64,000 nucleotides of DNA. Source: Somniosus microcephalus (lineage: Eukaryota). This document shows positions 1 through 37,957 of this stretch, piece by piece. Under the pieces are notes generated by a model. It saw only the letters and a list, made by a program, of their open reading frames with translations, was not told the origin of the DNA and made no database searches. The stretch lies in contig CM126228.1 in the NCBI GenBank assembly GCA_052327205.1, positions 19,158,001 through 19,222,000 of the forward strand, in the 5' to 3' direction. Within the stretch, counting starts at the first letter, position 1; each line of letters opens with the position of its first letter. A program made the translations under genes and the position numbers.

Positions 1-1705
1 TATTGGTGAGTAAGTGCCGCTTGATAGCACTGTCGACGACACCTTCCATCACTTTGCTGATGATTGAGAGTAGACTGATGGGGCGGTAACTGGCCGGATT
101 GGATTTGTCCTGCTTTTTGTGGACAGGACATACCTGGGCAGTTTTGCACATTGTCAGATAGATGCCAGTGTTGTAGCTGTACTGGAATAGCTTGGCTAGA
201 GGCTCGGGTAGTTCTGTAGCACAAGTCTTCAGTACAATAGCCAGGATGTTGTCGGGGCCCATGACCTTTGCTGTATCCAGTGCGCTCAGCTGTTTCTTCA
301 TATCACATGGAGTGAATCGAATTGGCTGAAGACTGGCTTCTGTGATGGTGGGGACCTCCCGAGTAGTCTGATATGGATCATCCACTCGGCACTTCTGTCT
401 GAAGATGGTTGCAATCGCTTCAGCCTTGTCTTTTGCACTCACGCTGGGCTCCACCATCATTGAGGATGGGGATATTCATGGAGCCTCCTCCCGTTAGTTG
501 TTTAATGGTCCACCACCATTCACGACTGGATGTGGCAGAACTACAGAGCTTTGATCTGATCCATTGATTGTGGGATCGCTTAGCCCTGTCTATAGCATGC
601 TGCTTCTGCTTTTTAGCATGCATGTAGTCCTGTGTTGCAGCTTCCCCAGATTGGCACCTCATTTTTTGGTACGCCTGGTGCTGATCCTGGCATGCTCTTC
701 TGCACTCCTTACTGAACCAGGGTTAGTCCCCTGGCTTGATGGTAATGATAGAGTGAGGGATATGCCGTGCACTGAGGTTACAGATTGTGGTGGAATACAA
801 TTCTGCTGCTGCTGATGGCCCACAGTGCCTCATGGATGCCCAGTTTTGAGCTGCTGGATCTGTTCTGAATCTGTCCCATTTAGCACGGTGATAGTGCCAC
901 ATAACACAATGGAGGCGGGACTTCGTCTCCACAGTGTCTGTGCGGTGGTCACTGCTACCAATGCTGTCATGGACAGATGCATCTGCGACAAGTTGATTGG
1001 TGAGGACGCGGTCAGAGTTTTTTCCCTCGTGTTGGTTTTCTCACCACCTGTTGCAGTCCCAGACTGGCAGCTATGTCCTTCAGGACTCGCCAGCTCGGTC
1101 AGTAGTGGTGCTACCGAGCCACTGTTGGTGATGGACATTGAAGTCCCCCACTCAGAGTACATTCTGTGCCCTTGCTACTCTTCGTGCTTCTTCCAAGTGG
1201 TGTTCAACATGGAGGAGTATTGATTGATTCAGTAGGTGGTAATCAGCAGGAGGTTTCCTTGCCTATGCTTGACCTGAAGCCACGAGACTTCATGGGGTCC
1301 AGAGTCAATGTTGAGGACACCCAGGACCACTCCTTCCCAACTGTATACCACTGTGCCGCCTCCCCTGGTGGGTCTGTCCTGCCGGTGGGACAGGACCTAC
1401 CCAGGGATGGTGATGGAGGAGTTTGGGACATTGGCTGAAAGGTATGATTCTGTGAGTATGACGATGTCAGGCTGTTGCTTGACTAGTCTGTGGGACAGCT
1501 CTCCCAATTTTGGCACAAGTCCCCAGATGTTGGTGAGGAGGACTTTGCAGGGTCGACTGGGCTGGGTGTGCCGTTGTCGTGTCCGTAGCCGGTGCCAAGG
1601 TCGCTGCCGGGTGGTCCGTCTGGTTTTATTCTTGTTTCTTGTAGCGGTTTGGTGCACCTGAGTGGCTTGCTGGGTCATTTCAGAGGGCAGCGAAGAGTCA
1701 ACCAC
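1..1705 (-). mobile_element. Non-LTR retrotransposon ORF2, decayed (AP endonuclease, linker, start of RT), CR1/L2-group; continues past the left window edge
   Basis: Minus-strand fragments LLTNIWGLVPKLGEL...QPDIVILTESYL (APE motifs), WHYHRAKWDRFR, REWWWTIKQLTGG and, near 1-260, GPDNI...YRPISLLSIISKVMEG (RT domains 0-2). Stops and frameshifts are present. Confidence 0.9.
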
Positions 1706-1972
1706 ATTGCTGTGGGTCTGGAGTCACATTTAGGCCAGACCGGGTAAGGACGGCAAATTTCCTTCCCTCAAGGACGTTCATGAACCAGATGGGTTTTTAC
1801 GACAATCCGATAGTTTCATGGTCACCATTACTGATACTAGCTTTTTATTCCCGATTTTATTTAATTAACTGAATTTAAGTTCCCTAGCTGCCGTGGTGGG
1901 ATTTGAACTCGCGTCTCTGGATCATTAGTCCTGTTACTGGTCCAGTAACATTACCACTATGCTACCGTTCCC
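1706..1972 (-). promoter_or_regulatory. tRNA-derived Pol III (type 2) promoter head plus SINE-like body, contiguous with the LINE ORF
   Basis: Minus strand reads GGGAACGGTAGCATAGTGGTAATG (A box, about 1954-1964) ... GAGTTCAAATCCCACCA (B box, about 1899-1909), then runs without a break into the APE coding region. Confidence 0.8.
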
Positions 1973-2171
1973 GAATATACCCCGATATATTCAGCTGGGT
2001 CAAATATCCAGATGACAGCTGAAACCAGTTTGTTAAAAAGAAAGCAATAGGATTGGTTTGTTGTGTGGAAAACTGCAGCTGCCAGAATGATACTTTTAAG
2101 AGAAAAAATAAGCAATTGAATGGTTTGGTTTCATAATGTTTCTTTCCTGATTGGCAGCTTTCATATATATT

Positions 2172-2943: not shown

Positions 2944-3180
2944 AAATAAAAACTGAAAATGCTGGAGAAACTCAGCAGGTCAGGCAGCATCTGTGGAGAG
3001 AGAAACAGAGTTAACATTTCAGGTCGATGACCCTTCGTCAGAACAGTTCTGACGAAAGGTCATTGACCTGAAACGTTAACTCTGTTTCTCTCTCCACAGA
3101 TGTTGCCTGACCTGCTGAGTTTCTCCAGCATTTTCTGTGTTTATTTCAAATTTCCAGCATCTGCAGTATTTTCTTTTTGT
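2944..3180. mobile_element. Penelope-like element terminal-repeat relic forming a palindrome of about 200 bp
   Basis: 2944-3044 is the near-perfect reverse complement of 3046-3146; the same sequence caps the GIY-YIG-bearing relic at 30966-31375. Confidence 0.8.
3045..3081 (+). ncRNA. Minimal type I hammerhead ribozyme motif (mirror copy on the minus strand at about 3009-3044)
   Basis: AGTT-CTGACGA-A-AGGTC(att)GACCT-GAAA-CGTT-AACT: CUGANGA and GAAA cores, stem II AGGTC/GACCT, stem I AGTT/AACT, palindromic ACGT stem III as in Penelope-associated hammerheads. Confidence 0.65.
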
Positions 3181-36702: not shown

Positions 36703-37957
36703 GATGTAACTGGTAAAATAGATAAGGGAGAACCAGTGGATGTGCTGTATTTGGATTTTCAGAAGGCTTTTGATAAGGTCCCGCATAAGAGATTAGCGTG
36801 TAAAGTTAAAGCACATGGGATTGGGGGCAAGGTATTGACTTGGATAGAGAACTGGTTGGCAGACAGAAAGCAAATAGTTGGAATAAACGGGTCTTTTTCC
36901 GAGTGGCAGGCAGTGACTAGTGGGGTACCGCAGGGTTCGGTCCTTGGACCCCAGCTATTCACAATATATATTAATGCTCTAGACAAGGGAACTAGATGTA
37001 ATATCTCCAAATTTGCAGACGACACAAAGCTGGGTGGGAGTGTGTGCTGTGAGGAGGATGCTGAGAAACTCCAGGATGATTTGGATAGGTTGGGTGATTG
37101 GGCAAAAACATGGCAGATGCAATATAATGTGGATAAATGTGAAGTTATCCACTTTGGTGGCAAAAACAGGAAGGCAGATTATTATCTGAATGGCAATAGA
37201 TTGGGAGAAGGGGAAGTGCAACGAGACCTGGGTGTCCTTGTGCACCAGTCGCTGAAGGTAAGCATGCAGGTGCAGCAGGCGGTTAAGAAGGCAAATGGTA
37301 TGTTGGCCTTCGTAGCGAGAGGGTTTGAGTACAGGAACAAGGATGTCTTGCTGCAGTTGTACAGGGCCTTGGTGAGACCACACCTTGAGTATTGTGTGCA
37401 GTTTTGGTCGCCTTATCTGAGGAAGGATGTTCTTGCCATGGAAGGAGTTCAGCGAAGATTCACCAGGCTGATACCTGGGATGGCAGGAATGACGTATGAG
37501 GAGAGATTGGGACAATTGGGCTTGTACTCGCTGGAGTTTAGAAGAATGAGAGGGGATCTTATTGAAACTTATAAAATTCTGACAGGACTGGACAGACTAG
37601 ATGCAGGAAGGATGTTCCCGATGGTCGGGGAGTCCAGAACCAGGGGTCACAATCTAAGGATAAGGGGTAGGCCATTTAGGACAGAGATGAGGAGGAATTG
37701 AGATGAGGAATTTCTTCACCCAGAGAGTGGTGAACCTGTGGAATTCTCTACCACAGAAGGCAGTAGAGGCCAATTCATCATTAAATATATTCAAGAAGGA
37801 GTTGGATATATTTCTTAGGGCTAAAGGGATCAAGGGGTATGGGGAGAAGGCAGGGACCGGGTACTGAAATTGGATGATCAGCCATGATCGCATTGAATAA
37901 CGGAGCAGGCTCAAGGGGCCGAATGGCCTACTCCTGCTCCTATCTTCTATGTTTCTA
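36703..37957 (+). mobile_element. Young 5'-truncated CR1 LINE with a long intact RT reading frame
   Basis: YLDFQKAFDKVPH, GVPQGSVLGP, KFADDTKL, LVRPHLEYCVQFWSP; TTCTATGTTTCTATG tail; TGTATG on both flanks; interrupts an older SINE (36640-36700 plus 37964-38250). Confidence 0.95.

Follow-up and report, generated by a model that had tools for sequence, protein, structure and literature searches.

A tRNA-derived head fused to an endonuclease-reverse transcriptase frame is confirmed as the 5' end that a single-ORF LINE of 3.3 kb normally has; this LINE is present in thousands of copies in the genome of Somniosus microcephalus. The fusion was noticed at one end of a 64,000-nucleotide stretch of that genome (the window). 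Taken as a whole, the results are best explained, with somewhat better than even confidence, by an autonomous Zenon-type LINE of sharks and rays whose sole 5' end is the tRNA-derived head, a LINE that RNA polymerase III (Pol III) probably transcribes and that has an unconventional translation start and spawns SINEs. In the textbook division, LINEs are coding and transcribed by Pol II, and SINEs are non-coding and transcribed by Pol III. That division would fail for a LINE which, across sharks and rays, has retained a tRNA head and has neither T-runs nor an AUG start. If the explanation is true, it poses the question of how an uncapped Pol III transcript gets translated in a vertebrate cell, gives new SINEs a way to arise in one step, independently and many times within a single genome, and supplies a candidate, testable function for a conserved SINE body.

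The copy in the window lies on the minus strand and has the following layout.

~1973 leftwards, minus strand: whole Zenon-type element, 3.29 kb in total, continuing past the left end of the window
1895..1973, minus strand: tRNA-derived head of the long-variable-arm (Ser/Leu) type, the 5' end of the element (motifs, tRNA alignment, variable-arm hairpin)
1954..1964, minus strand: predicted Pol III A box TAGCATAGTGG (sequence; one purine-to-purine change between subfamilies)
1899..1908, minus strand: predicted Pol III B box GTTCAAATCC (sequence; an abundant 15-mer genome-wide)
1799..1894, minus strand: short conserved stretch after the B box, then a variable AT-rich spacer (subfamily comparison)
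1655..1798, minus strand: highly conserved body, a candidate translation-start RNA element (substitution counts, consensuses of five species)
1652..1678, minus strand: in-frame ATG, mostly with a stop at codon 3 and/or 9, open in the window copy (89-copy comparison)
1547..1651, minus strand: basic leader without Met, in frame with the endonuclease (ORF translation)
890..1546, minus strand: AP endonuclease (APE) domain, broken in the window copy (PF14529 and PF03372 on the natural copy L112)
1..889, minus strand: linker and beginning of the reverse transcriptase (RT; RVT_1 on L112)

Both boxes are located as first predicted, and the head runs as described into the leader and endonuclease, the frame 1723-1397 encoding the leader and the endonuclease start LLTNIWG...ILTESY. 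The remaining RT, the 3' UTR and the A-rich end occupy ~1.3 kb of neighbouring genome sequence outside the left end of the window. The window copy is dead. Compared with a natural open copy it has 6 stops and several frame changes, including a stop at 1396-1394 and a gap with a frame change near 1230 in the endonuclease, and its head has a 9-nt gap. Its apparent Met start at 1678 is copy-specific, and Pfam gave no match above cut-off on the window's own fragments.

A genome-wide query with the junction returned 8431 candidates, and all 40 scored matches, the window counted in, span the junction. Among 29 other fetched loci, 23 reach the B box or further, with unrelated flanks. Exact 15-mers from the B box, the body and the endonuclease start occur 13,637, 14,794 and 6,983 times in the genome, and the reversed control 15-mers 2, 1 and 21 times. 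The junction is therefore neither due to chance nor unique to this locus, uniqueness being the outcome that the original prediction had named as fatal to itself. The head was present in 19/29 and 23/29 copies of two top-hit sets, in which the share of long forms is inflated compared with an unbiased contig sample. In a sampling that is independent of the 5' end, the genome was searched by endonuclease domain and 50 loci were fetched, 20 of them chosen for long frames or high scores; they contained 27 distinct family copies, the remainder being other LINEs, pieces and duplicates. The tRNA head is reached in 17 of the 27 copies, and the remaining 10 have no alternative abutting 5' sequence in common. 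No ORF1-bearing form was seen among these copies, which have only short frames upstream of the APE, and ~430 nt separate the 5' end of the element from the APE. Thus the predicted lack of an ORF1 holds in this set, as does the lack of a second 5' end. A 21-nt unit of the head is amplified in tandem at one locus (L277), and at two others (L017 and L043) the head lies directly behind the internal or 3' part of another copy.

Five elasmobranchs have been described as carrying Zenon elements, none of which has an ORF1 and all of which have poly(A) (PMC13343379, as far as available). The shark element resembles these (SquAca_Zenon-1 and the CarCar, ScyCan, RhiTyp and HypSab elements) in its length of ~3.3 kb, single APE-RT frame, lack of ORF1 and A-rich end. 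Over the first 400 letters, compared by eye, the seven elasmobranch consensus rows open with the same head and body, SquAca_Zenon-1 being almost letter-for-letter the same, and no sequence difference from elasmobranch Zenon was noted in this part; two hagfish rows and a low-confidence coelacanth row lack the head and body start. Since these consensuses match by eye, the family and its absence of ORF1 were already known, and the original view of the missing ORF1 as unusual has to be given up. By this comparison the element appears to be a Zenon-type LINE of the CR1 group, known as sequence. The available text and supplement of PMC13343379 contain no match to 'tRNA' and are silent on the tRNA head, T-run avoidance, the missing AUG and SINE derivatives. 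New here are the purifying selection and young open frames, the absence of TTTT with T avoidance, the stop-closed AUG in a conserved block, and the SINE-sized majority. The literature searched holds no report of a tRNA-headed Zenon or of a Pol III-transcribed LINE; an earlier description in Repbase or Dfam is possible.

The young subfamily contains a natural open frame of 965 codons with APE and RT, and the natural copy L112 matches PF14529, PF03372 and RVT_1 (E 4e-40). Young copies are 97-98% pairwise identical and some have open frames behind the head, so that reporter tests can be direct. The family has been active recently. When the majority sequence of 10 young copies is compared with that of 10 older ones, 972 codons give a dN/dS of 0.198; the Zenon-type ORF is under purifying selection. 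Family copies have A-rich 3' ends. The closest recorded proteins, in Heptranchias and Rhincodon, are 72-87% identical, and other relatives 40-48% or less. The RT phylogeny proposed with the original prediction, with 32 rows among which there is no named Zenon, places the element apart from the genome's CR1-like frames and beside unnamed proteins (98/94). Two observations concern the database records. A Heptranchias perlo aldo-keto reductase model (P0002) includes ~210 residues of Zenon-type LINE protein, by exonisation or gene-model error, and an RNA run that bears the label coral metagenome (X20), compared with L112, covers the element from end to end at shallow depth and shows the variants found in the other runs, for which contamination is the simplest reading.

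Most body-bearing copies are SINE-sized. Among the first 41 on one contig (C1), the LINE's own 3' tail follows in 27, the endonuclease in 9 and the RT region in 1, while 4 show no tail; none of these unbiased copies has a foreign tail. The 27 tail-joined copies use many different junctions, with one junction found three times and one locus duplicated, and six young short copies have five junctions between young-type head and tail. Head-tail joints also occur in three of the four sequencing runs examined, all of them contigs that show presence only, and no habitat can be read from the small shares seen in two metatranscriptomes. SINEs are taken as non-coding and 100-700 bp long, which describes the short derivatives and excludes the full element with its APE-RT; a head with A and B boxes, the mark of a tRNA-derived SINE, is present. 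Repeated internal deletion from the LINE fits best as the source of the SINE-sized forms. Of the two roles that had been proposed for such SINEs, that of deletion derivatives is upheld, and that of promoter donor is unsupported, because none of the 41 copies has a foreign tail. The proposal of an autonomous SINE-headed LINE draws support from the family structure, the APE-RT frame, the purifying selection and these derivatives.

The derivatives resemble the Lepidoptera pair Zenon/Persaeus, in which short elements consist of LINE 5' and 3' ends with variable junctions (PMC6740152, as far as available). Persaeus is described there as lacking tRNA similarity and a Pol III promoter, whereas the shark derivatives carry a putative promoter of this type and are therefore SINEs in structure. 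For RTE-1_DAn and relatives, a single sentence of the available part of PMC5786205 speaks of a LINE that contains a tRNA-like sequence. The same source describes bipartite SINEs derived from RTE and Vingi, a likeness in that LINE 5' UTRs supply SINE bodies; these belong to another clade, and there the SINE acquires its tRNA head after the deletion, whereas here the LINE is already headed. The shark pairs HE1/HER1 (V-SINE) and SacSINE1/L2-2_CM (Deu-SINE) are tRNA-headed SINEs with a 3' tail shared with a LINE, and by their descriptions only the tail is shared. Identity with the Deu domain of SacSINE1 was considered and rejected, the body matching the Deu alignment by eye over only ~10 letters. 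No V-domain sequence bearing the element's motifs was found in the paper supplements, and the V domain of HE1 presumably differs from the Zenon-type body.

The head of the window copy matches the Rfam tRNA model weakly (19.5 bits, E 0.32, below gathering), and ARAGORN finds no tRNA in the window. Family heads, in a comparison limited to Ser, Leu, Asp and Ala genes, align to the same genome's tRNA-Ser/Leu genes better than 300/300 shuffles. The variable-arm hairpin is preserved via three double changes between two subfamilies, which may represent a small number of events along a single branch; parts of the anticodon and T stems are disrupted in one or another of the subfamilies, and RNAalifold gives no cloverleaf for the head. 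Between the boxes 16/53 sites differ between subfamilies and in each box 1/11, a conservation that is not significant (P 0.37 each), the boxes being too short for the test. Behind the B box the first 29 sites are free of substitutions between the subfamilies, and 16 of the following 68 differ. From its motifs, the head is inferred to be a Pol III promoter. The genome also contains an extensive gene array (G000:C4 ~0.72-1.92 Mb, L243-L252) made up of tRNA-Ser(AGA), Leu(TAA) and Asp(GTC), with many of the genes degenerate, and the Ser arm motif has 422 matches genome-wide.

Vertebrate Pol III terminates at four or more T. Sense-strand TTTT is absent from both majority sequences, in which AAAA occurs 16-17 times, and 6/10 old and 8/11 young-type copies are free of it. 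Its rate is 0.15 per kb in 108 kb of family copies, compared with 0.62-5.33 in eight groups of other genomic LINE fragments. In metagenome homolog loci T-runs occur in 80/80 (0.47-17.9 per kb), most of these loci being T-richer than the element, which is T-poor (about 20% T). The closest relative with flanks among them, L161, contains T-runs and begins its frame with an ordinary ATG. With relaxed settings ARAGORN gave only noise on the metagenome loci, and a lone A/B-like pair at L194 was rejected as a tRNA head by its appearance. The zero count of TTTT alone is not significant under codon-based nulls (P 0.117 and 0.09), and TTTT is also missing from 2/9 control frames. At synonymous C/T sites, T is used in 155/329, then 54/146, then 7/45 as the would-be run lengthens. 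The avoidance of T at run-making positions amounts to an OR of 0.21 (p 4e-5), or 0.19 in the majority sequence of the old copies; it is weaker in control LINE frames (OR 0.59, p 3e-4), and A-runs are mildly avoided too (OR 0.53, p 0.02). Judged from the boxes and these counts, the full-length element is rather more probably than otherwise transcribed by Pol III.

A possible but distinctly less probable alternative is that Pol II transcribes the same family, starting either in the captured head and body or at promoters in the flanks, with the boxes mattering to the SINEs only and T-run avoidance arising from RNA processing. Non-LTR elements are described as Pol II-transcribed, and Pol III products are usually short (PMC10886601, as far as available). 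The body rather than the boxes is the most conserved part, the mild T avoidance in other LINE frames points the same way, and in two probable RNA runs the depth of head and body far exceeds that of the APE, depth being a poor measure there. However, the T avoidance exceeds that of the controls and sits in the coding region that the SINEs lack, the endonuclease-anchored copies reveal no other 5' end, and the head is retained on master lineages in five species (PMC13343379, as far as available). Transcription by Pol III is preferred.

The translation start was surveyed in 102 copies, of which 13 were dropped for a missing motif. An in-frame ATG 45 codons upstream of the endonuclease is present in 87/89 copies. 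A stop follows at codon 3 and/or 9 in 80/89, at least 53/89 have both stops, and 9/89, the window copy among these, have neither. By eye, six of seven published elasmobranch rows read ATG GCC TAG (PMC13343379, as far as available). Beyond this ATG the first Met comes at residue 250 of the APE-started frame, behind the endonuclease. This arrangement suggests translation without a normal start codon. It is unlikely, more so than Pol II transcription, that the element starts at this AUG with read-through of the stop, or that master copies hold an open AUG frame. Such a start would account for the near-universal in-frame ATG and for the copies in which both stops are missing, and the UAG here has CAA behind it, a leaky stop context. 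The consensuses of four species have, by eye, a single stop only (PMC13343379, as far as available). Against it, the two-stop copies include nearly all the young ones with open downstream frames.

The unconventional start that is preferred here may involve the body. Between subfamilies the body has 2 substitutions in 143 sites against ~26 expected, synonymous sites differing at 18.5% (P about 1e-10), and it is near-identical by eye across the consensuses of five species (PMC13343379, as far as available). Given this deficit of substitutions, the 143-nt body probably functions as an RNA element, although exchange of sequence between the subfamilies could contribute to the conservation. Its folding energy is ordinary (z -0.51), Rfam gives no IRES or ribozyme match (E up to 10), and a loose scan for the HDV core was empty. 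At the end of the body stands a hairpin whose loop of 7 nt, CUAGCAA, resembles an anticodon loop, and the UAGC in it is the complement of a GCUA that lies in frame a short way downstream. The pairing recalls pseudoknot I of the dicistrovirus intergenic IRESs; it is a post hoc observation, competes with a 7-bp stem, GUGGUUG/CAACCGC, and is without Rfam or energy support.

In the explanation favoured here, Pol III would initiate at the A and B boxes and, meeting no terminator, transcribe all 3.3 kb and continue into the flanks. The resulting RNA, which is uncapped, would be translated with the aid of the conserved body of 143 nt, beginning at a non-AUG codon, or alternatively by reinitiation or read-through behind the two-codon uORF, and the encoded protein would use target-primed reverse transcription to insert this RNA. 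Deletions inside the element that spare head and tail would recurrently yield ready-made SINEs. That a vertebrate autonomous retrotransposon combines a 3.3-kb Pol III coding RNA, a cap-independent IRES-like non-AUG start and a direct one-step supply of SINEs is proposed only tentatively, and is doubtful in this full form. The reading that a SINE inserted by chance next to a LINE, or that another LINE copies a non-autonomous chimera, agrees with the dead window copy and with target-site duplications that are mostly absent (2/17 copies with >=9 letters, 4/21 having been dropped because an end was not located), but is refuted by the junction-spanning matches in thousands of copies with independent flanks, the open frames behind the head and the purifying selection, and is extremely improbable.

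Three other features were observed in the window. A ~790-bp element at 2159-2950 with 31-nt terminal inverted repeats resembles a non-autonomous DNA transposon, and a 90% copy of it lies within the leader of another Zenon copy (L058). At 2990-3100 there is an inverted repeat of 55 nt, 95% complementary and with a spacer of 1 nt. At 36721-37578, on the plus strand, lies an RT fragment from another LINE, with 32% identity to the Zenon-type family protein.
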